Positions 1 through 49,036 of a DNA stretch of 49,036 nt are shown here, in pieces; within the stretch, counting starts at the first letter, position 1; each line of letters begins with the position of its first letter. Source of the DNA: a virus (taxonomy: Duplodnaviria; Heunggongvirae; Uroviricota; Caudoviricetes); IMG/VR virus record IMGVR_UViG_2531839476_000015, positions 1 through 49,036 of that record, one strand, 5' to 3'. Below the pieces are notes generated by a model. That model saw only the letters and a program-made list of their open reading frames with translations. It was not told the origin of the DNA and ran no database searches. Position numbers and translations under genes: made by a program.

Positions 1-1074
1 TCATTTGTCGATTTCAATTTTGTCCCATTCCCGTCCACGGCTGTCCCTATACCGCGCCGCCATTAAATCTGATTTATGCCCGAGAAGACGTTGAGCAAAC
101 TTATCGCCAATCTGGTTCCGGTATAGCCTCGCTGACAGGCTACGCAGTTCATGGAATGTTGGCGGGTTTCCATCAAATGAGAGTCCAGATGCATTTCTCG
201 CCTTTGTAAAATACTTTGATACTGTTTTCGGGGAAAGCGGATCGTGATGCTTTGATGCGATTATAGTTTCACTGCTGCTGGCCTCCCTGCATTTCTGTAG
301 TGTATCAGCCAATGAGATATTGAGCGCGTCAATCGTTAGCGTTAGCGGAATGGCGAGTTTAGCCCCTGTTTTACTCTGTTCAATGTGAAGATGGTTGTCG
401 TTTATGTCTGACCATTTCATTCTGCACAAATCGCCGACTCTCTGCCCTGTAACGACGGCCAAATCCATCGCCAGCCTTAGCCAGATAGGGAGAGGTTCGG
501 CTGCATGGTAAATCTCGACATACTCATTAGCTGTCAGCCTTGAGCGCCTTACTTCTGACTTTGCTGTACGGGTTGCTGTTACCGGATTCGTTGCAACATG
601 CCCCTCGGCTATTGCTTCACGAAAAACGTCAACAAGGGTTGACCTGATTAATTTTGCGGAAGCTGCTTTACCTTCTGCCACGTAGGTGTTTAGCATTGCT
701 GCCACTTCTTTCGTTGATATGTCAGTGAGCGGTTTGTCCGGCAATTTTCTTCGGATTGCCCTGATTTTGCTGGCGTAGTCGAGTAGAGTTTTCGGCCTGA
801 TCCCTCTTTCGGTGAGGATTCTTTCATATCGGTCAAGCCACACATGAAGAGTGATTGCGTCACCGCCTTTAATTCTGTCTATCAGTGATTTGCGTCCGCT
901 GTCTGAGAGTAACTCAATATTGGCCTGTATTGCTTCAGTGATTGCTATCCTCCTGTCTCGGCCTAATCCAAACTCTTTACCCGTCCTTGGGTCCCTGTAG
1001 CAGTAATATCCATTGTTTCTTATATAAAGGTTAGGGGGTAAATCCCGGCGCTCATGACTTCGCCTTCTTCCCAT
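1..1074 (-). CDS. int: Tyrosine integrase, lambda Int family (complete; stop codon at window positions 1-3)
   Basis: ORF track 357 aa; N-terminus MGRRRSHERRDLPPNLYIRNNGYYCYRDPRTGKEFGLG and C-terminal HELRSLSARLY...LLGHKSD...YRDDRGREWDKIEI match lambda Int as I recall it, with divergence in the middle. Confidence 0.95.
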   Translation of the reverse strand: MGRRRSHERRDLPPNLYIRNNGYYCYRDPRTGKEFGLGRDRRIAITEAIQANIELLSDSGRKSLIDRIKGGDAITLHVWLDRYERILTERGIRPKTLLDYASKIRAIRRKLPDKPLTDISTKEVAAMLNTYVAEGKAASAKLIRSTLVDVFREAIAEGHVATNPVTATRTAKSEVRRSRLTANEYVEIYHAAEPLPIWLRLAMDLAVVTGQRVGDLCRMKWSDINDNHLHIEQSKTGAKLAIPLTLTIDALNISLADTLQKCREASSSETIIASKHHDPLSPKTVSKYFTKARNASGLSFDGNPPTFHELRSLSARLYRNQIGDKFAQRLLGHKSDLMAARYRDSRGREWDKIEIDK

Positions 1075-5272: not shown

Positions 5273-5953
5273 TCATCGCCATTGCTCCCCAAATACAAAA
5301 CCAATTTCAGCCAGTGCCTCGTCCATTTTTTCGATGAACTCCGGCACCATCTCGTCAAAACTCGCTATGTACTTTTCATCCCGCTCAACCACGACATAAT
5401 GCAGGCCTTCACGCTTCATACGCGGGTCATAGTTGGCAAAGTACCAGGCATCTTTTCGCGTCACCCACATGCTGTACTGCACCTGGGCCATGTAAGCCGA
5501 CTTTATGGCCTCGAAACCACCGAGCCGGAACTTCATGAAATCCCGGGAGGTAAACGGGCATTTCAGTTCAAGGCCGTTGCCGTCACTGCATAAACCATCG
5601 GGAGAGCAGGCGGTGCGCATACTTTCGTCGCGATAGATGATCGGGGATTCAGTAACATTCACGCCGGAAGTAAACTCAAACAGGGCTCTGGCGTCGTTCT
5701 CGTACTGTTTTCCCCACGCCAGTGCCTTAGCATTAACTTCCGGAGCCACACCGGTGCAAACCTCAGCCAGCAGGGTGTGGAAGTAGGACATTTTCATGTC
5801 AGGCCACTTCTTTCCTGAGCGGGGCTTTGCTATCACGTTGTGAACTTCTGAAGCGGTGATGACGCCGAGCCGTAATTTGTGCCATGCATCATCCCCCTGT
5901 TCGACAGCTCTCACGTCGATCCCGGTACGCTGCAGTATAATGTCCGGTGTCAT
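5273..5953 (-). CDS. exo: Lambda exonuclease (Red-alpha, YqaJ-like)
   Basis: 226 aa, near-identical to lambda Exo ([50 protein letters not shown]...). Confidence 0.97.
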
Positions 5954-19941: not shown

Positions 19942-20017
19942 GGCCCTTTAGCTCAGTGGTGAGAGCGAGTGACTCATAATCGCCAGGTCGCTGGTTCAAA
20001 TCCAGCAAGGGCCACCA
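19942..20017 (+). tRNA. ileZ: tRNA with CAU anticodon (Ile2-lysidine or Met type; ileZ-like of Stx phages)
   Basis: Hand fold: 7-bp acceptor GGCCCTT/AAGGGCC, D arm GCTC/GAGC, anticodon loop CTCATAA, T arm GCTGG-TTCAAAT-CCAGC, discriminator A and encoded CCA. Confidence 0.8.
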
Positions 20018-20018
20018 A

Positions 20019-20084
20019 CCGCCACTAGCTCATCAGGAAAGAACGTCACCCTGTGCGAGATTCGGAGTCCCCGGTGGCGGTCCA
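20019..20084 (+). other. tRNA-like remnant (acceptor-like ends CCGCCAC/GTGGCGG and encoded CCA, but no foldable D or T arm; only 66 nt)
   Basis: Sits where Stx phages carry a second tRNA (argN); I could not fold a canonical cloverleaf by hand. Confidence 0.3.
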
Positions 20085-20097
20085 TTATCAGCATCAT

Positions 20098-20174
20098 GCG
20101 TTGTTAGCTCAGTCGGACAGAGCAATTGCCTTCTAAGCAATCGGTCAGTGGTTAGACTCCACTACAACGCGCCA
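20098..20174 (+). tRNA. argO: tRNA-Arg (anticodon UCU; argO-like)
   Basis: Hand fold: acceptor GCGTTGT/ACAACGC, D arm GCTC/GAGC, anticodon stem ATTGC/GCAAT with loop CTTCTAA, T arm AGTGG-TTAGACT-CCACT, encoded CCA. Confidence 0.85.
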
Positions 20175-20187
20175 CACTTATTTTCCA

Positions 20188-20211
20188 GGCTCGCTTCGGC
20201 GGGCCTTTTTT
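20188..20211 (+). terminator. Intrinsic terminator after tRNA cluster (stem with UUCG tetraloop then T6)
   Basis: GGCTCGC-ttcg-GCGGGCC followed by TTTTTT; coordinates approximate. Confidence 0.5.
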
Positions 20212-20343
20212 GTATCTGCGCCACGCCCGGCGCATATCAACCACAGAGCCTTTCGGGGGTGAGCTTACGGAGTGGTCAGTGTGACTTTCTCTGTGGGCAG
20301 ATCGCTCCCGGGCGTTGGCTCACCCACCCAAAGGAACGTCACG

Positions 20344-20775
20344 ATGTTTGGAATCTTCAAAAAGAAAACCCGCAGAGCGGCAGCGGAAATTAAAAAGTTT
20401 GAGAAACGCGATCTGGCACAGGCGGTGATTAACGCTGCATACCTGGTGGCCTATGCAGATGGTGAATGCGAGGCATCCGAGAAAGCGAAGATCGAACAGG
20501 TCTTACGTAATCAGCCTGCGTTGTCTGCGTTTACCTCGGAAATTAATGCGATTAGCGCAACCATTATCGGTCAGCTGGATACCAATTTTAAAATTGGTCG
20601 TCGTGCCGCGTTACGCGAGATTGAGGATGTGAAACACGATACGCGTGAAGCGGAAGATGTGCTGGATGTGGCGGTGGCCATTGCGGAGGCAGACGGCGAA
20701 ATTGAGCCGGAAGAGCGCAAGGTGCTGGAAGAGATTGCCGGTGTTCTGGGTCTTCGTCTGGAGAATCACCTGTGA
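20344..20775 (+). CDS. TerB-like (tellurite-resistance TerB domain) protein in the slot occupied by stx in Stx phages
   Basis: ORF track 20272..20775, start at internal Met MFGIFKKK; paired acidic helices (YADGECEASEKAKIEQV ... AEADGEIEPEERKVLEEIAGVLGL) as in TerB; assignment by recall. Confidence 0.65.
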   Translation: MFGIFKKKTRRAAAEIKKFEKRDLAQAVINAAYLVAYADGECEASEKAKIEQVLRNQPALSAFTSEINAISATIIGQLDTNFKIGRRAALREIEDVKHDTREAEDVLDVAVAIAEADGEIEPEERKVLEEIAGVLGLRLENHL

Positions 20776-20939
20776 CGGTAAAACTGCGCCTGGCTGTGGC
20801 TGCACTCCTGCTGTTTCTGGTGGTGATGGTGGATTTCACCACCAGAATCATGTCGGTGCTGGCGGATGGGGTGCTGGTCTGCGGCATTGTGGTATTGCTG
20901 TGGCCGGTGATAAAAAGAAACAGCCTGCATAATGCTTGA
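20772..20939 (+). CDS. Small hydrophobic membrane protein (55 aa), GTG start overlapping the TerB-like stop
   Basis: My translation VTVKLRLAVAALLLFLVVMVDFTTRIMSVLADGVLVCGIVVLLWPVIKRNSLHNA; two predicted TM segments; GTGA overlap with upstream stop. Confidence 0.4.
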   Translation: MTVKLRLAVAALLLFLVVMVDFTTRIMSVLADGVLVCGIVVLLWPVIKRNSLHNA

Positions 20940-21120
20940 TTTTTTTGTTTGCTGTTTATTAAAAACACTTCTGCATGGTGAATCCCCCTGTGCGGAGGGG
21001 CGACTGGTGTAGGTAGCATTTATTATGTTATAGGCAAGCCGACGCGGGTTCAGTGACACCGGCTGAATTCACCGGGAGGCACCCGGCACCATGCAAGAAA
21101 AAGAATGTGCATGCAAACAT

Positions 21121-21145
21121 GCCCCTCTCCGGAGGGGCATTTTTT
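21121..21145 (+). terminator. Intrinsic terminator (GCCCCTC-tccg-GAGGGGC then T6)
   Basis: Perfect 7-bp GC-rich stem plus T tract downstream of the TerB-like cargo; a second hairpin follows at about 21159-21176. Confidence 0.55.
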
Positions 21146-21360
21146 ATGGGTAAAAAATGCCCGAATGGGTTCGGGCAATAGCATGAGATACTGATATTGT
21201 TGTGTTGTTATCGTGTGGATTTTAACCAGGGTTTATCAGGCTGCGCAACTGCGTGGCCTTTTTTCATTTCTTGGGCTGTAGTCCCCGTGTGTCATTCAGG
21301 CTTCCGGACTACAGCCCACTCCATATCTGATTTAATACACTATCCCGGCCGGGAGGAATA

Positions 21361-23214
21361 ATGACATTTAAACATTATGATGTTGTCAGGGCGGCGTCGC
21401 CGTCAGACCTTGCGGAAAAGCTGACACACAAACTGAAAGAGGGCTGGCAGCCGTTTGGTAGTCCGGTGGCCATAACCCCTTATACCCTGATGCAGGCGAT
21501 TACAGCAGAAGGTGATGTGGTGGTCAGTGGTGCAACTGAGCCGGATTGGTACTACGTCATCGTACTGGCCGGGCAGTCCAATGCCATGGCTTACGGTGAA
21601 GGGCTTCCGCTGCCGGATTCATACGATGCTCCGGATCCGCGCATTAAACAGCTGGCGCGCCGCAGTACAGTTACGCCGGGTGGGGCTGCCTGCAGATATA
21701 ACGATATTATTCCGGCCGACCACTGCCTGCATGATGTGCAGGATATGAGTGCGCTGAATCATCCGAAGGCAGACCTGAGCAAAGGGCAGTACGGCTGTGT
21801 CGGCCAGGGCTTACATATTGCCAAAAAACTGCTCCCGTATATCCCGAATAACGCGGGGATCCTGCTGGTACCATGCTGTCGTGGTGGTTCTGCATTCACC
21901 CAGGGCGCTGAGGGGACATTCAGTGCGGACACGGGGGCCAGCCAGGATTCGGCACGCTGGGGTGTGGGTAAACCGTTATATCAGGACCTGATTGCGCGCA
22001 CTAAAGCTGCATTACAGAAGAACCCGAAAAATGTGTTGCTGGCGGTGTGCTGGATGCAGGGAGAGTTTGACATGAGCGCCGCCACCCACGCACAGCAACC
22101 TGCGCTGTTTACAGCCATGCTGACACGGTTTCGTGCTGACCTCTCCGTGTTTAACGCGCAGTGCCATGGTGGCAGTGCTGCAGATGTGCCGTGGATTTGT
22201 GGTGACACGACGTATTACTGGAAAAATACATACGCTACCCAGTACGACACCGTGTACGGCGGGTATAAAAACAGGGAGAGTGAGGGCGTTTATTTTGTGC
22301 CCTTCATGACAGACGGTAACGGCGTCAATACCGCCACTAACGCGCCGGCAGAAGATCCGGATATTCCGGCATCAGGATATTACGGTGCGGCATCGAGAAC
22401 GAATGGAAACCAGGTATCATCAAACCGCCCGACACATTTCAGTTCATGGGCGCGCAGGAGCATTATTCCGGATCGTCTGGCAACCGCTATTCTGAACGCA
22501 GCCGGGCGCACCTCCGCCTTCATCAGTGGTAAGGCACCGGAAATCAAACCCTCGCCCGGCGGCAACACGCCATCGGGTCCGTCTGCAGATACGTCCGTTC
22601 GCACAATCTCCCTGCTGCCGGCAGCCGGAGAGGCTGCTGCGCAGGGCTGGAGCATTAAGGATGGCGGAATTCAGTTGTCAGATGGTGTATTTAAGATCAC
22701 CAAGCAGAGCAATAAAACCTGGTCCCTGACGCATCCGGTGGATGACGCAATTACCCTGCTGACACAGGGCGGCAGACTGAACTGTAAGTTCCGCCTGTCA
22801 GGCGCACTGACCAACAATCAGTTCGGGCTGGGGATTTATCTGTATACGGATGCTCCCGTTCCTGATGGTGTGGCGATGACGGGTACCGGTAATCCGTTCC
22901 TGATGTCGTACTTCACTCAGACCACTGACGGCAGAGTGAATCTGATGCATCACAGGAAAGCCGGAAACACGAAGCTGGGGGAGTTCGGCGATTACGGTAA
23001 CGACTGGCAGACGCTGGAGCTGGTGTTCACCGCCGGCAGTGCCACGGTTACTCCGAAACTGAATGGAGTGGCTGGCCCGGCATTCCAGGTTATAAAAGAC
23101 AGTCTGACACTGGGACTGAATGCGCTGACGCTGACGGATGTTACAAAAAATGCAGCGTATGGCGTTGAGATAGAAAGTCTGGTGCTGGAGATAAATGCAC
23201 CGGCATCATCATAA
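21361..23214 (+). CDS. nanS-p: NanS-p-like sialate O-acetylesterase (SGNH/GQSN hydrolase with C-terminal extension)
   Basis: 617 aa; [18 protein letters not shown] block typical of the 9-O-acetyl sialic acid esterases found in Stx prophage late regions. Confidence 0.8.
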
Positions 23215-43561: not shown

Positions 43562-46500
43562 GTGGGTAAAGGTGGCGGCAGGGCGCACACGCCGGTTGAG
43601 GCAAAGGACAATCTTAAGTCCACGCAGATGATGAGCGTGATTGATGCCATCGGTGAGGGACCGGTGGAAGGTCCGGTGAAGGGGCTGCAGAGTATTCTGG
43701 TGAACAAAACCCCGCTGACGGACACGGACGGTAATCCTGTGATACATGGTGTGACAGCGGTCTGGCGCGCCGGGGAGCAGGAGCAGACACCGCCGGAAGG
43801 TTTTGAGTCATCCGGCTCTGAAACCGCACTGGGCGTGGAAGTGACGAAGGCAAAGCCGGTGACGCGCACCATTACGTCCGCGAACATTGACCGCCTGCGG
43901 GTTACCTTCGGGGTGCAGTCACTGGTGCAGACCACCTCACAGGGTGACCGTAACCCGGCATCCGTCCGCCTGCTGATTCAGCTGCAGCGTAACGGTAACT
44001 GGGTGACGGAAAAGGATGTCACCATTAACGGCAAGACCACCTCACAGTTCCTCGCTTCGGTGATTCTGGATAATCTGCCTCCCCGCCCCTTTAACATCCG
44101 GATGGTCAGGGAGACGGCGGACAGCACCACGGACCAGCTGCAGAATAAGACGCTCTGGTCGTCATACACCGAAATCATCGATGTGAAACAGTGCTACCCG
44201 AACACGGCGATTGTGGGGCTGCAGGTGGATGCGGAGCAGTTTGGCGGTCAGCAGATGACGGTGAACTACCATATCCGCGGTCGCATCATCCAGGTACCGT
44301 CAAACTATGACCCGGAAAAACGCACGTACAGCGGCATCTGGGACGGCAGCCTGAAACCGGCATACAGCAACAACCCGGCCTGGTGCCTGTGGGACATGCT
44401 GACTCACCCGCGCTACGGCATGGGAAAACGTCTGGGGGCGGCAGACGTGGACAAATGGGCGCTGTATGCCATTGCGCAGTACTGCGACCAGACGGTCCCG
44501 GATGGTTTCGGGGGCACAGAGCCGCGGATGACCTTTAATGCGTACCTGTCACAACAGCGTAAGGCGTGGGACGTTCTCAGTGATTTCTGCTCGGCGATGC
44601 GCTGTATGCCGGTATGGAACGGCCAGACGCTGACGTTCGTTCAGGACCGCCCGTCGGATGTGGTGTGGCCGTACACCAACTGCGATGTGGTGGTGGATGA
44701 TAACGGCGTGGGGTTCCGCTACAGCTTCAGTGCCCTGAAGGACCGGCACACGGCGGTGGAGGTGAATTACACCGACCCGCAGAACGGCTGGCAGACCTCC
44801 ACGGAACTGGTGGAAGACCCGGAAGCCATACTGCGCTACGGGCGCAACCTGCTGAAGATGGATGCGTTCGGCTGCACCAGTCGCGGTCAGGCCCACCGTG
44901 CCGGGCTGTGGGTGATAAAGACCGGACTGCTGGAAACGCAGACGGTGGATTTCACGCTCGGGTCACAGGGGCTGCGTCACACACCCGGTGACATTATTGA
45001 AATCTGTGATAACGACTATGCCGGGACCATGACCGGCGGACGTGTCCTGTCCATCGATGCCGCCAGCCGCACCCTGACACTGGACCGTGAGGTGACCCTG
45101 CCGGAGACAGGTGCCGCCACGGTGAACCTGATTAACGGTGGCGGTAAGCCGGTGAGCGTGGCCATCACCGCACACCCCGCGCCGGACCGGATACAGGTCA
45201 GTACCCTGCCGGATGGTGTGGAGACATACGGTGTGTGGGGGCTTTCCCTGCCGTCACTGCGTCGTCGCCTGTTTCGCTGTGTCTGCATCCGGGAAAACAC
45301 GGACGGCACTTTTGCCATCACGGCAGTGCAGCATGTGCCGGAAAAAGAAGCCATCGTGGATAACGGGGCCAGCTTTGAGCCGCAGTCAGGCACCCTGAAC
45401 AGCGTTATTCCACCGGCAGTGCAGCACCTGACGGTGGAGGTGAGCGCGGCTGACGGTCAGTATCTGGCACAGGCGAAATGGGACACGCCGCGGGTGGTGA
45501 AGGGTGTGCGCTTCAGTCTGCGCCTGACCAGCGGAAGCGGAGAAGACAGCCGTCTGGTGACCACCGCCATCACTGCGGATACAGAGCATCGTTTCAGTGG
45601 TCTGCCGCTCGGGGAATACACCCTGACAGTCAGGGCAATTAACAGTTATGGCCAGCAGGGCGAACCGGCCACCACCACGTTCAGGATTAATGCACCTGCG
45701 GTACCCGCCACGATTGAGCTGACGCCGGGGTATTTTCAGATAACGGCGGTCCCGCGTCTTGCGGTGTATGACCCGACGGTGCAGTTTGAATTCTGGTTCT
45801 CAGAAAAACGCATCACGAACACGGCACAGGTGGAAACCTCTGCCCGTTATCTGGGGACCGGCAGTCAGTGGAGTGTATCCGGCCCGCACATTAAGCCCGG
45901 GAAGGATTTCTGGTTTTACGTGCGCAGCGTCAACCTGGTGGGGAAATCTGCTTTTGTGGAAGCCAGTGGCCGGGCCAGCAATGATGCAGAAGGGTATCTG
46001 GGGCTGTTTCGGGAAAAAATAGGAAAACTGCATCTGGCTCAGGGGTTGTGGGAACTGATAGATAACAGCCAGCTTGCAGATGAGATGGCGGAGATGAAGA
46101 CCAGCATCACGGAAACCCGCAATGAAATCACACAGACGGTCAGTAAAACACTGGAGAACCAGAGCGCCACCATACAGCAGATACAGCGCGTGCAGAAGGA
46201 CACAAATGATGACCTGGCTGCGCTGTACATGCTGAAGGTTCAAAAAACGAAAGACGGCATTCCCTATGTGGCCGGGATTGGTGCAGGGATTGAGGATACT
46301 GATGGCCAGCCACTGAGCAACATACTGCTGCTGGCTGACCGTATCGCGATGATAAATCCGGAGAGCGGCAACAGCACGCCGTTATTTGTGGCGCAGGGGA
46401 ATCAGCTGTTCATGAACGACGTGTTCCTGAAACGACTGTTTGCGGTGAGTATCACGTCATCCGGCAACCCCCCGACGTTTTCCCTGACGCCGGAAGGGAA

Positions 46501-47038
46501 GCTGACAGCCAGGAACGCGGATATCAGCGGAGCAATTACCGCGAATACCGGCACGCTCAATAATGTCACCATTAACGAGAACTGTGTCATCAGAGGGAAA
46601 CTGTCTGCAAACCAGATTGAAGGCGACCTGGTGAAGACGGTGGGGAAAGCCTTTCCCCGGAATAACAGTTATGCCAGCGGGACGGTAACCGTCACAGTTT
46701 ACGATGACCAGGGCTTCGACCGGCAGATTATCATTCCCCCGGTGCTGTTTCGCGGGACGAAACACCAGAATTTCAACAGCCCGAATCAGCAGTCGTACTG
46801 GTATTCCACCTGTAAGCTGCAGGTGCTGAAGAACGGGGTTGAGATTTTCCATGAACCGGCAACGGATGTCAGCCGGGTGTTCTCATCGGTGATAGATATG
46901 CCGGCAGGGCGGGGTCATGTCACCCTGACGTTTAATGTGTCGTCGGCCGGTGCGAACAACTGGACGCCGACAACGTACATCAGTGATTTACTGGTTGTGG
47001 TCATGAAAAAATCCACGGCAGGGATCAGTATCAGCTGA
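43562..47038 (+). CDS. J: Tail tip / host specificity protein J
   Basis: 1158 aa, colinear with lambda J from [17 protein letters not shown] to the C-terminal receptor-binding region (which diverges); GTG start. Confidence 0.96.
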
Positions 47039-47106
47039 CGGTTTATTAACCCGGACGGGCACCTCAGGAGGTGCCTTTTTTATTGACTGAAAACAAAGAG
47101 GTAATC

Positions 47107-47730
47107 ATGCGGCATTTATACGCAACGATATTATTGTTTACTACCCTGCTGGCAGGAATTGCCTTTCCTGCACAGGCTGAAAGCGGACACGGTGCATTTT
47201 CCGTGGGATATGCTCAGGTTCACCCGGGCGGCGTACCGGCATTGTCCGGTACCGGTGCGCGTGCAGGTGATTTAAAAGGGATTAATGTGAAATACCGTTA
47301 TGAGTTCACGGATCACCTGGGCGGCATTGTCGCGCTGAGTTATGCATCGGTGAAGAAAAGTGACACGATGAAGACGGGTGAAAATACCTTCCATTATGAA
47401 AGCCTGCGCGGTCGTTATGTCAGTCTGATGGCCGGCCCTGTCTGGCAGCTCAGTGAGCGGGTCAGTCTCTATGGCATGGCCGGGATGGCGTACACCCGCT
47501 GGTCTGACAGTGTTCAGGATTACCGGCGTGATGAAGTGAAACCGGGGTATGTGAAGGAGACCACCACCGCCAGTGATGGTCATACTGCGCGTCATCTGTC
47601 GCCGGCCTGGAATGCCGGGATTCAGTTCAGTCCCGTAGAGACGGTGGTTATTGACCTTGCTTATGAAGGCTCCGGCAGTGGCGACTGGCGCACTGACGGT
47701 TTCATTGTGGGGGTCGGTTATAAATTCTGA
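47107..47730 (+). CDS. lom: Lom outer-membrane beta-barrel protein (Ail/Lom family)
   Basis: Start at MRHLYATILLF; signal peptide then HGAFSVGYAQV...; C-terminus YEGSGSGDWRTDGFIVGVGYKF identical to lambda Lom. Confidence 0.88.
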   Translation: MRHLYATILLFTTLLAGIAFPAQAESGHGAFSVGYAQVHPGGVPALSGTGARAGDLKGINVKYRYEFTDHLGGIVALSYASVKKSDTMKTGENTFHYESLRGRYVSLMAGPVWQLSERVSLYGMAGMAYTRWSDSVQDYRRDEVKPGYVKETTTASDGHTARHLSPAWNAGIQFSPVETVVIDLAYEGSGSGDWRTDGFIVGVGYKF

Positions 47731-47794
47731 TTAGCCAGGTAACACAGAGTTATGACAGCCCGCCGGTTCTGGTGGGCGTTTTTGTGGGGTGAAT

Positions 47795-49036
47795 ATGGCA
47801 GTAAAGATTTCAGGTGTACTGAAAGACGGCACAGGAAAACCGGTAGAGAACTGCACCATTCAACTGAAAGCCAGACGGACCAGCAGCACGGTGGTGGTGA
47901 ACACGGTGGCCTCTGAAAATCCGGATGAAGCCGGTCGTTACAGCATGGACGTTGAGTACGGTCAGTACAGCGTCATTCTGTTGGTGGAAGGATTCCCGCC
48001 GTCACATGCCGGGACCATCACCGTGTATGAAGATTCTCAACCCGGTACGCTGAATGATTTTCTCGGTGCCATGTCGGAGGATGACGTCCGGCCGGAGGCA
48101 CTGCGTCGTTTTGAACTGATGGTGGAAGAAGCGGCGCGTCACGCTGAGGAGGCGAAGAAGAATGCCGGAGAGGCGGAGACGTCAGCGAGGAATGCCGGCA
48201 TATCAGCCAGTCAGGCAGAAGAGAGCGCTGCAAATGCTGACACTTCAGCAGGGGAGGCATCGGAGTCAGCCCGGCAGGCGGCAGAAAGTGCAGCCTCAGC
48301 AAAGCAGTCAGAGGATGCGTCCTCGTCCTCGGCTTCTGCGGCCGCTCAAAAAGCCAGTGAGTCATCACAAAGTGCAGCAGAAGCTGAATTGTCAAGAAAG
48401 ACGGCAGAAAGTGCAGCCGGTAATGCAGCCAGGGATGCAACGACCGCAACAGAAAAAGCCCGGGAGTCAGCAGAAAGCGCACAGTCAGCGGAACAAAGCA
48501 GGATAGCGGCGGAAGAGGCCGTAAACCGAATCCCCACCGTGGTGGGACCTCCCGGGCCAAAGGGGGAACAGGGGCCCGCTGGCCCTCAGGGGCCGAAGGG
48601 GGATAAGGGAGAGCGTGGCGACACCGGCCCGGCAGGGGCAACCGGTGAACGGGGGCCGGCAGGTGATGCTGGTCCGGCAGGCCCGCAGGGGCCGAAAGGC
48701 GACAGGGGAGAGCGGGGAGAGACCGGTCTGACGGGAAATGCAGGTCCACAGGGTCCAAAGGGAGATACCGGTGCGGCAGGCCCGGCAGGCCCACAGGGAC
48801 CGAAAGGAGAAACAGGTGCGGCTGGCCCGGTGGGGGCAACCGGACCTCAGGGACCGAAGGGCGACCCGGGGGAGACACAAATCCGTTTTCGTCTGGGGCC
48901 GGCGAGCATTATTGAGACAAACAGCAATGGCTGGTTCCCGGATACAGATGGCGCACTCATCACCGGACTGACCTTTCTTGACCCCAAAGATGCCACACAG
49001 GTTCAGGGGCTGTTTCAGCATTTGCAGGTCAGGTTT
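47795..49036 (+). CDS. stf: Side tail fibre Stf (3'-truncated by window end) with Ala/Ser-rich and collagen-like segments
   Basis: N-terminal 110 aa match lambda Stf ([27 protein letters not shown]...); the frame is open to the last base of the window. Confidence 0.88.
48545..48874 (+). repeat. Collagen-like Gly-X-Y repeat region (about 36 triplets) within stf
   Basis: Protein residues 251-360 read [31 protein letters not shown]...; the GC-rich periodic DNA generates spurious antisense ORFs. Confidence 0.85.

Follow-up and report, generated by a model that had tools for sequence, protein, structure and literature searches.

The window analysed here, a stretch of 49,036 nucleotides, is essentially a single lambdoid siphovirus prophage. 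An integrase gene lies at positions 1-1074 (minus strand), genes for tRNA-Met and tRNA-Arg are found at 19942-20174, and the site where Stx phages have stx is occupied by a TerB-domain ORF and a NanS-p-like esterase gene, the prophage itself being without stx. It also encodes a protease-capsid fusion and a tape measure protein of 1080 aa. The gene J for the central tail-tip fibre (43562-47038, plus strand) is intact, and its product matches the Pfam families Ig_J, FNIII-A_GpJ, Phage_Tail_Tip and Ig_GpJ_C with E values of 1e-41 to 3e-22. Between J and the gene studied here, stf, lies lom (47107-47730, plus strand; PF06316, E = 8.5e-51), which encodes an outer-membrane beta-barrel of the Ail/Lom type, has the annotation Lom in both VT1-Sakai and RefSeq, and serves as a context marker for the lambda tail-fibre region. 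The best DNA matches are Stx-phage and E. coli prophage records, and Stx1a-converting phages match the early half of the window over 65% of its length, at 96.8% identity.

The stf gene (47795-49036, plus strand) is present as the 5' 1242 of 1314 nt. According to both the list of open reading frames and direct translation, it starts at the ATG at 47795 and its frame runs without a stop to the final base of the window, 414 of 437 codons being inside and the last 23 codons beyond. The full-length gene has 1314 nt and encodes 437 aa in a 99.7% identical locus (L001) and in VT1-Sakai (L002), which places the end of the window 72 nt before the stop codon. The intactness of the gene and its last 23 codons are read across from copies 98 to 99.7% identical, and are presumably the same here. 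Matches at 95 to 99% identity over at least 80% of the length of the stf DNA were found in 141 phage records, nearly all of them Stx-converting or other E. coli lambdoid phages, and 708 of the 5426 complete E. coli genomes contain a near full-length match (at least 80% of the length). Because it follows J and lom and its product begins with a PfN collar domain, the identification of the gene as a side tail fibre gene is supported.

Pfam recognizes three domains in the product, in the order PfN (PF08400), Collagen (PF01391) and PfC (PF06820). PfN covers aa 1-133 (47795-48193, plus strand) and matches the full profile with an E value of 5.6e-69; aa 1-93 are the collar domain, and the helix that starts at about aa 101 is already part of a coiled coil. 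The collar domain aligns without gaps to gpStfN of Ur-lambda (PDB 9e7m, chain Ta; E = 3.5e-53), with 7 mismatches in 93 residues by hand count on the printed alignment, or about 92% identity. The lambda-like N-terminus proposed in a preliminary description of this DNA is thereby confirmed. The likeness to Ur-lambda gpStf (PDB 9e7m/9mgh; PMC12617516) extends to the position of the gene after J and lom, and to the order of the parts: a short linker leads into a proximal coiled coil, trimeric and rich in Ala and Ser, and a hinge comes between this and the distal part. In Ur-lambda, twelve copies of gpStfN form a collar at the tail tip, with four trimeric side fibres, and a flexible linker of about 10 residues precedes the proximal coiled coil, which begins at residue 102 (PMC12617516).

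The collar is followed by a segment rich in Ala, Ser and Glu (PCoil; 48095-48544, plus strand; aa ~101-250, linker included). The preliminary description had called it low-complexity; its composition is indeed biased (32% Ala, 18% Ser and 14% Glu over aa 113-250), but it is not merely low in complexity, as it forms an unbroken heptad coiled coil. About 21 uninterrupted heptads of the form x-S-A-x-x-A-x (aa ~101-247) lead to a short linker, NRIPTVV, and then to the first Gly-Pro-Pro. With aa 101-250 stacked by seven, Ala is found at two heptad columns in 15 and 16 of the 21-22 rows, and the Fourier power at a period of 3.5 residues reaches 4.5-5.2, whereas shuffled sequences have a 95th percentile of 1.6-1.8. 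In an AF2 monomer model of a full-length homologue of 350 aa (P0071, from a 32-sequence alignment), aa 101-244 are helical with a pLDDT of 70-95; the mean pLDDT of this model is 56, and PfN, Col and PfC are below 50, the alignment being shallow and the protein an obligate trimer. The Ala/Ser-rich stretch is a coiled coil, not disorder.

The collagen-like domain (Col) occupies aa 251-361 (111 aa; 48545-48877, plus strand; PF01391, E = 2.7e-18). Translation of 47795-49036 on the plus strand keeps the Gly-X-Y periodicity throughout Col, and a regular-expression count gives 37 uninterrupted triplets; the earlier figure of about 36 triplets at residues 251-360 was right as to an unbroken tract and slightly low in its count. 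Similarly, the interval first assigned to the low-complexity and collagen-like segments, 48150-48874, starts at residue 119, within the Ala/Ser/Glu segment, and stops 3 nt before the true end at 48877. It is impossible that 37 in-phase glycines arose by chance. Position X is Pro in 18 of the 37 triplets (49%) and Asp or Glu in 13 (35%), while position Y is Lys or Arg in 11 (30%), so that Col has the long uninterrupted Gly-X-Y run, the Pro-rich X position and the charged X and Y positions of the PF01391 family. The commonest triplets are GPK, GPQ, GPA, GER and GET, and the triple-helical rod that they form is about 32 nm long. Directly after Col comes PfC (48878-49036, plus strand; PF06820, E = 1.9e-26), which is cut by the end of the window, aa 363-414 matching positions 1-52 of the 64 in the profile; it is complete in L001 and L002.

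This arrangement is that of the EPclA class defined by Ghosh et al. in 2012 (PLoS One 7:e37872, PMC3368898), of which ECs2717 and ECs2941 of E. coli O157:H7 Sakai are examples. We assign the window protein to this class because it is 98% identical to ECs2941, the copy carried by VT1-Sakai (prophage Sp15): 407 of its 414 residues are the same in that protein (H0004), with seven amino acid substitutions. ECs2941 is listed as an EPclA of 437 aa, with a PCoil of 116 and a Col of 111 aa (PMC3368898 Table 2). The window protein has the same PfN, PCoil, PfC and single Col, in one run without a Pf2 repeat or a second run, and when PCoil is taken as aa 134-250 its length is 117 aa by hand count, with heptad periodicity, for a class value of about 116. 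The genomic setting agrees as well, EPclA genes being found in the tail module of lambdoid prophages of E. coli and Shigella, and int, the tape measure gene, J and lom all lying upstream of stf here. Apart from the prophage around it, which has no stx and whose J is intact where that of VT1-Sakai is truncated, we found no substantial difference from the Sp15 copy. The published residue preferences of the EPclP collagen domains (X: Pro 48.1%, Asp/Glu 35.6%; Y: Lys/Arg 31.0%; PMC3368898 Table 4) agree with those of Col, as do the five top triplets and the recurrent GP(Q/P)-GPK-G(D/E) pattern, and the composition given for PCoil is 32/19/13% Ala/Ser/Glu (PMC3368898). It has also been stated that PCoil length differences are multiples of seven (PMC3368898). 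Taken as a strict rule, this was rejected: relative to aa 251, Col starts in homologues with offsets of 7, 21 and 63 (aa 244, 230 and 188), which fit, and also of 41 (aa 210), which does not.

The biochemistry of the class is available from recombinant EPclA of the Sakai strain, studied by AUC, SEC-MALLS, CD and EM (PMC3368898). The protein is a trimer in which the CD signal of collagen melts at 42 C and the trimeric coiled coil has a Tm of about 50-52 C. It has the shape of a dumbbell of ~48-62 nm, up to ~62 nm when fully extended, with a hinge that joins a thick rod of ~16 nm to a thin rod of ~30 nm, and PfC trimerises and nucleates the refolding of Col (PMC3368898). The Sakai copies of EPclA are more than 90% identical to each other, and the protein tested, which comes from Sakai, is a paralogue of the window protein. 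Since experiments are at hand on a paralogue that shares 98% of the 414 residues inside the window, the view that the Gly-X-Y tract of the window is a genuine collagen domain is supported, by analogy with that protein.

Lambda Stf, which is 774 aa long, differs from the window protein beyond the collar: its coiled coil is much longer, and its distal domain is gp37-like, binds OmpC and requires the Tfa chaperone. The proximal coiled coil alone spans aa 102-393 (PMC12617516). In contrast, the window protein is without Pf2 repeats or a gp37-like part and has a collagen rod and a small PfC knob instead. Pfam detects no distal domain (PF03406 or other) in the part of the product that lies in the window, and in related loci the downstream gene is a stand-alone ORF consisting of PfC only, a paralogue of 89 aa, not tfa. 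For these two reasons, the window protein is homologous to Stf at its N-terminus only.

Another related protein is EPclB, or gp61, the lateral fibre of short-tailed Stx phages such as 933W, Sp5 and phi24B. It shares with the window protein PfN, PCoil, a collagen shaft and a PfC knob, and three loci found with the window query (L031, L032 and L038) are of this form. AlphaFold and cryo-EM show an N-terminal coiled-coil rod and a collagen-like shaft, long and flexible, which ends in a small globular domain at the C-terminus (bioRxiv 10.64898/2026.04.10.717836). However, EPclB belongs to a podovirus tail and contains two collagen domains, the first of them with one interruption (32+20 and 38 triplets in L031), whereas the Col of the window protein is single and unbroken, and its phage is a siphovirus. 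The older assignment of BamA as the receptor of EPclB/gp61 is now doubted (bioRxiv 10.64898/2026.04.10.717836), and a literature search returned no receptor for the PfC knob.

Outside phages, the collagen-like proteins Scl1 and Scl2 of Streptococcus pyogenes and BclA of Bacillus anthracis resemble the window protein in that the triple helix is free of hydroxyproline, is stabilised largely by charge pairs and is nucleated by a globular trimerisation domain; the BclA structure 1wck is a weak sequence match (E = 7e-08). Scl1, Scl2 and BclA differ from it as proteins of the cell or spore surface, with secretion and anchoring signals and other terminal domains, and they have a Thr/Gln-rich Y position and less Pro at X (PMC3368898 Table 4). 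The question arises as to whether the window protein could, like Scl, be primarily a virulence factor of the bacterium, a mimic of host collagen that travels as prophage cargo, rather than a fibre of the virion. EHEC and related pathotypes are enriched in such proteins, this form is absent from K-12 (PMC3368898), the related loci adjoin the effector cargo TccP2, EspV, OspG-kinase and Cif, and one database copy (P0089) is even named SclE. However, the window protein has neither a signal peptide nor an anchor, and its N-terminus is the lambda Stf collar domain, about 92% identical to the one solved in a virion. Moreover, the gene is embedded in the tail module, where J and lom immediately precede it, and the expression reported for the class is tied to phage induction (PMC3368898). 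We therefore give very little credence to a virulence factor unrelated to the virion.

We propose instead that this DNA belongs to a lambdoid, long-tailed E. coli prophage and specifies the shaft of its side tail fibre, which is of the EPclA type. We estimate the probability of this explanation as a whole, class membership, assembly and length change included, at about 0.9. Three chains would associate into one fibre, with their PfN domains docking at the tail tip in a collar like that of gpStfN in Ur-lambda; that docking takes place in this way on the tail of the window phage is suggested by the similarity of the collar domain. Residues ~101-247 would then form a trimeric Ala/Ser coiled coil of about 16-22 nm, the linker NRIPTVV a hinge, and residues 251-361 the collagen triple helix, which would do without hydroxyproline and be stabilised by Pro at X and by charges between Asp/Glu at X and Lys/Arg at Y. 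At the far end, the PfC knob would trimerise, nucleate the folding of the collagen rod and presumably bear the host-binding surface. The knob would be held about 50-60 nm from the tail, and a faster first contact with the cell is expected. The rod also changes in length over evolutionary time, by in-frame deletions and duplications between degenerate copies of GPQ-GPK-G(D/E) and at a tandem repeat of 9 nt. In this model a role of PfC in receptor binding is putative, as is any functional effect of rod length, and the idea, present in the preliminary description, that rod length alters the reach to receptors should be read in the same conditional sense.

Is the gene still under selection? Among 20 distinct alleles with 37 triplets, 39 of the 50 variable sites of Col fall at third codon positions of the sense frame, and the codon differences from the window comprise 191 synonymous and 34 nonsynonymous ones. 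By these counts, the sense frame is strongly constrained and Col is under strong purifying selection. This bears on a scenario in which stf is a decaying remnant in a defective prophage and the Gly-X-Y pattern is kept by inertia. Many such EHEC prophages are defective, and frameshifted stf alleles are common in databases. Frameshifted or truncated alleles (P0091, P0096, P0110, P0114, P0115, P0119 and L027) would be in keeping with decay, and so would the defective copies, EPclA*, listed by Ghosh et al. (PMC3368898). In the window, however, all 414 codons are open, and J, the tape measure, the capsid and the integrase genes are full-length ORFs with strong domain matches. Together with the excess of synonymous differences in Col, this makes decay improbable in our eyes.

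The collagen part has a higher GC content (0.65-0.73) than the flanks (about 0.5-0.6), and the region contains several long ORFs in other frames. Two are on the minus strand, of 286 aa (48018-48878) and 178 aa (48485-49021), and two lie in other plus-strand frames, at 48162-48506 and 48738-48971 (114 and 77 aa). Their length is what could suggest a real gene overlapping stf. However, the differences from homologues, read in the antisense frames, are overwhelmingly nonsynonymous (59 synonymous versus 376 nonsynonymous for the 286-aa ORF, and 23 versus 308 for the 178-aa ORF), and 2 of 19 homologues have a stop codon within the 286-aa frame. No Pfam family matches the 286-aa ORF and none matches the 178-aa ORF above threshold, a sub-threshold match having an E value of 0.033. 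As for the two plus-strand frames, they are known from databases only as C-terminal tails of frameshifted stf alleles. Finally, one frame of each strand has zero stops over the region, and a coding sequence of GGN-CCN type is inherently poor in stops on the opposite strand. The antisense ORFs are a by-product of this stop-poor sense sequence, as the preliminary description had held in calling them spurious products of periodic GC-rich DNA, and we virtually exclude the existence of an overlapping gene.

Comparison of the repeat number between related prophages, which the preliminary description had recommended, showed that Col differs in length. Among the 120 cluster representatives listed from a protein search, the Col run varies from 4 to 38 triplets in homologues whose flanks are 90-99% identical, and loci of the viral collection have 36, 37, 38 or 27 triplets. 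The form with 37 triplets is itself stable, being shared by 19 distinct alleles whose divergence reaches about 7%. To describe the variation, we modelled each PfC-type variant as the 37-triplet tract of the window minus one in-phase deletion. Most fits had an identity of 0.92-1.00, and 24 distinct in-frame single deletions of 1 to 33 triplets could be mapped, with the window allele as a stand-in for the real parents, some deletions possibly sharing history, and any of them possibly being a duplication read in reverse. Variants with an S74-peptidase C-terminus (EPclD-like, flank TELLTT...) fitted this model poorly (0.60-0.89 identity); their Col repeats have a different history and they were excluded from the junction statistics. 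Two 27-triplet loci, L025 and L026, which resemble Sp11/Sp12, were likewise rejected as clean single deletions of the window allele; they also contain a third copy of the 9-nt unit.

The junctions of the mapped deletions are not placed at random. Their mean homology is 4.9 aa, versus 2.2 +/- 0.5 for random in-phase deletions of equal size, a value that none of 20,000 simulations matched or exceeded. At least 5 aa of junction homology was found in 10 of the 24 deletions, and in 9 of those 10 it lies inside copies of the GPQ-GPK/GPK-G motif. At the DNA level, four variants chosen for this purpose and two loci of the viral set have 2-11 nt of exact homology at their junctions, in contexts that are mostly 52-78% identical; the context is 40% identical in L025, which is not a simple single deletion. 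The tract contains five degenerate copies of a motif encoding GP(A)-GPQ-GPK-G(D/E)x (family D1, 43 nt, 67-79% identity; 48571-48874, plus strand), and these copies are favoured joints for length change. The only perfect tandem repeat of the tract is CGGCAGGCC (48774-48792, plus strand; TRF period 9, 2.1 copies, 100% match), which encodes GPA-GPA. It too has length alleles, one locus (L023) being shorter by 9 nt (36 triplets) and two others (L015 and L019) longer by 9 nt (38 triplets).

How fast do such changes occur? Two scenarios are considered: high-rate slippage at a hypermutable locus, and occasional recombination at short homologies. Under the first, Col would be a contingency locus, in which slipped-strand mispairing switches the length of the fibre, or the gene on and off, within a population. 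The abundance of length variants, the alleles that differ by one unit in either direction at the perfect 9-nt tandem and the occurrence of frameshifted alleles are all of the kind that such a locus would produce. A contingency locus, however, consists of an array of near-perfect tandem DNA repeats, and Col holds only a degenerate one: besides the perfect tandem, TRF reports a 9-nt unit repeated 2.2 times (90%) and a 45-nt unit repeated twice (84%), the repeat families are 60-84% identical, and no exact direct repeat longer than 11 nt was found in Col. In addition, synonymous sites have diverged freely between repeat copies as well as between alleles, contrary to what a homogenised array prone to slippage would show, and the stability of the 37-triplet form also speaks against frequent switching. 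We accordingly attach little credence to a contingency locus. Given this degeneracy, in which exact repeats do not exceed 11 nt, the data point to occasional short-homology deletion or duplication between lineages and not to a high-rate slippage switch. Repeat slippage, as first suggested for this tract, is therefore correct as a pattern of length change in evolution and overstated as a mechanism.

One may go further and suppose that the GP(A)-GPQ-GPK-G(D/E) motif, beyond any stabilising role, provides built-in, in-frame joints for recombination at short homologies, and that the resulting rods of 3-33 nm are matched to how thick an O-antigen or capsule layer the host has. Rod length would then be a selected host-range trait and not the outcome of neutral drift. 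We consider this extension rather doubtful.

In conclusion, the feature is real and ordinary: the protein type was described and biochemically tested in 2012, and the gene class has been in the literature since then and is found in hundreds of sequenced E. coli genomes. For annotation, the gene should be named an EPclA-type side tail fibre gene, and no gene calls should be made for the antisense or alternative-frame ORFs. What is added here is a quantified heptad register, an analysis of the junctions of Col-length variants and the case against a high-rate slippage locus. Slightly past the published tables, a minimum of 24 separate in-frame deletions, with a preference for junctions at the repeated GPQ-GPK motif, can account for the Col-length variants. 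If the length of the fibre affects adsorption through O-antigen layers, such changes would have a bearing on the spread of relatives of Stx phages between strains.

The four parts of the side tail fibre gene stf differ in how they diverge. Codon differences between the window and 19 homologues were counted raw, uncorrected for phylogeny or site number, as synonymous and nonsynonymous changes, respectively: 41 and 72 in the coiled coil (48194-48544), 38 and 53 in the part of the PfC knob that lies in the window (48878-49036), 191 and 34 in the collagen rod (48545-48877), and 145 and 44 in the N-terminal PfN domain. On these raw counts, change at the protein level is far freer in the coiled coil and the PfC knob than in the collagen rod or PfN. 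Synonymous divergence is by far the highest in the collagen part, which suggests mosaic exchange among prophage copies.

The coiled coil also varies in length. Among the homologous proteins compared (P0004-P0008, P0016, P0030, P0083 and P0109), the collagen rod starts at residue 251, 244, 230, 224, 210, 188, 137 or 103. Differences in coiled-coil length have been published as 'multiples of seven' (Ghosh et al. 2012, PMC3368898). Several of our offsets follow this rule (7, 21 and 63), which is nevertheless not strict, because the frequent form starting at residue 210 is off by 41 residues.

Two alternative-frame ORFs on the + strand (48162-48506 and 48738-48971) are exactly the same as the tails of frameshifted stf alleles present in databases: protein P0119 and the related locus L027 end with one such tail (last 12 residues), and protein P0091 with another (last 10 residues). 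It follows that defective stf alleles occur commonly in E. coli genomes.

Five related loci were checked for the gene downstream. In four of them, a small ORF consisting only of a PfC domain (89 aa; PF06820, E = 4e-36) lies directly 3' of stf, at a site corresponding to just past the window end (L001, the best match, 5316-5584; L083, 2555-2824; L084, 1829-2098; L085, 2511-2780). In lambda, this position is held by tfa. The first ATG in L001, 1 nt past the stf stop, is not in the PfC reading frame, which is why RefSeq annotates an 82-aa product starting at an internal ATG. The fifth locus (P0001/L086) has a frameshifted stf, whose 494-aa ORF reads through the stand-alone PfC ORF. The stand-alone PfC protein may act as a chaperone or may cap the distal end of the fibre.

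Upstream of stf, lom is flanked on both sides by terminator-like hairpins with T-runs, found by pattern match only (47057-47076 and 47758-47777, + strand), the second being 18 nt 5' of the stf start codon. With these putative hairpins in place, stf would need read-through of an antiterminated late transcript, and lom could be expressed separately, as in lambda lysogens.

Further upstream lie tRNA-Met and tRNA-Arg and, after them, a TerB-domain ORF (20272-20775) and a NanS-p-like sialate O-acetylesterase of 617 aa (21361-23214). This region (19942-23214) is the stx position of related Stx-converting phages. It contains no ORF of stxA size, which makes the prophage a non-Stx relative of Stx1a phages.

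In related prophages, the DNA downstream of the fibre genes holds insertion sequences as well as type III effector cargo (L001, 5793-9069; L086, 3091-4485), among them TccP2 and EspV fragments, an OspG-like kinase, Cif, and IS5/IS1 elements, with an adjoining tRNA-Ser. In lambdoid prophages of EHEC/EPEC, this is where the exchangeable effector locus usually lies.
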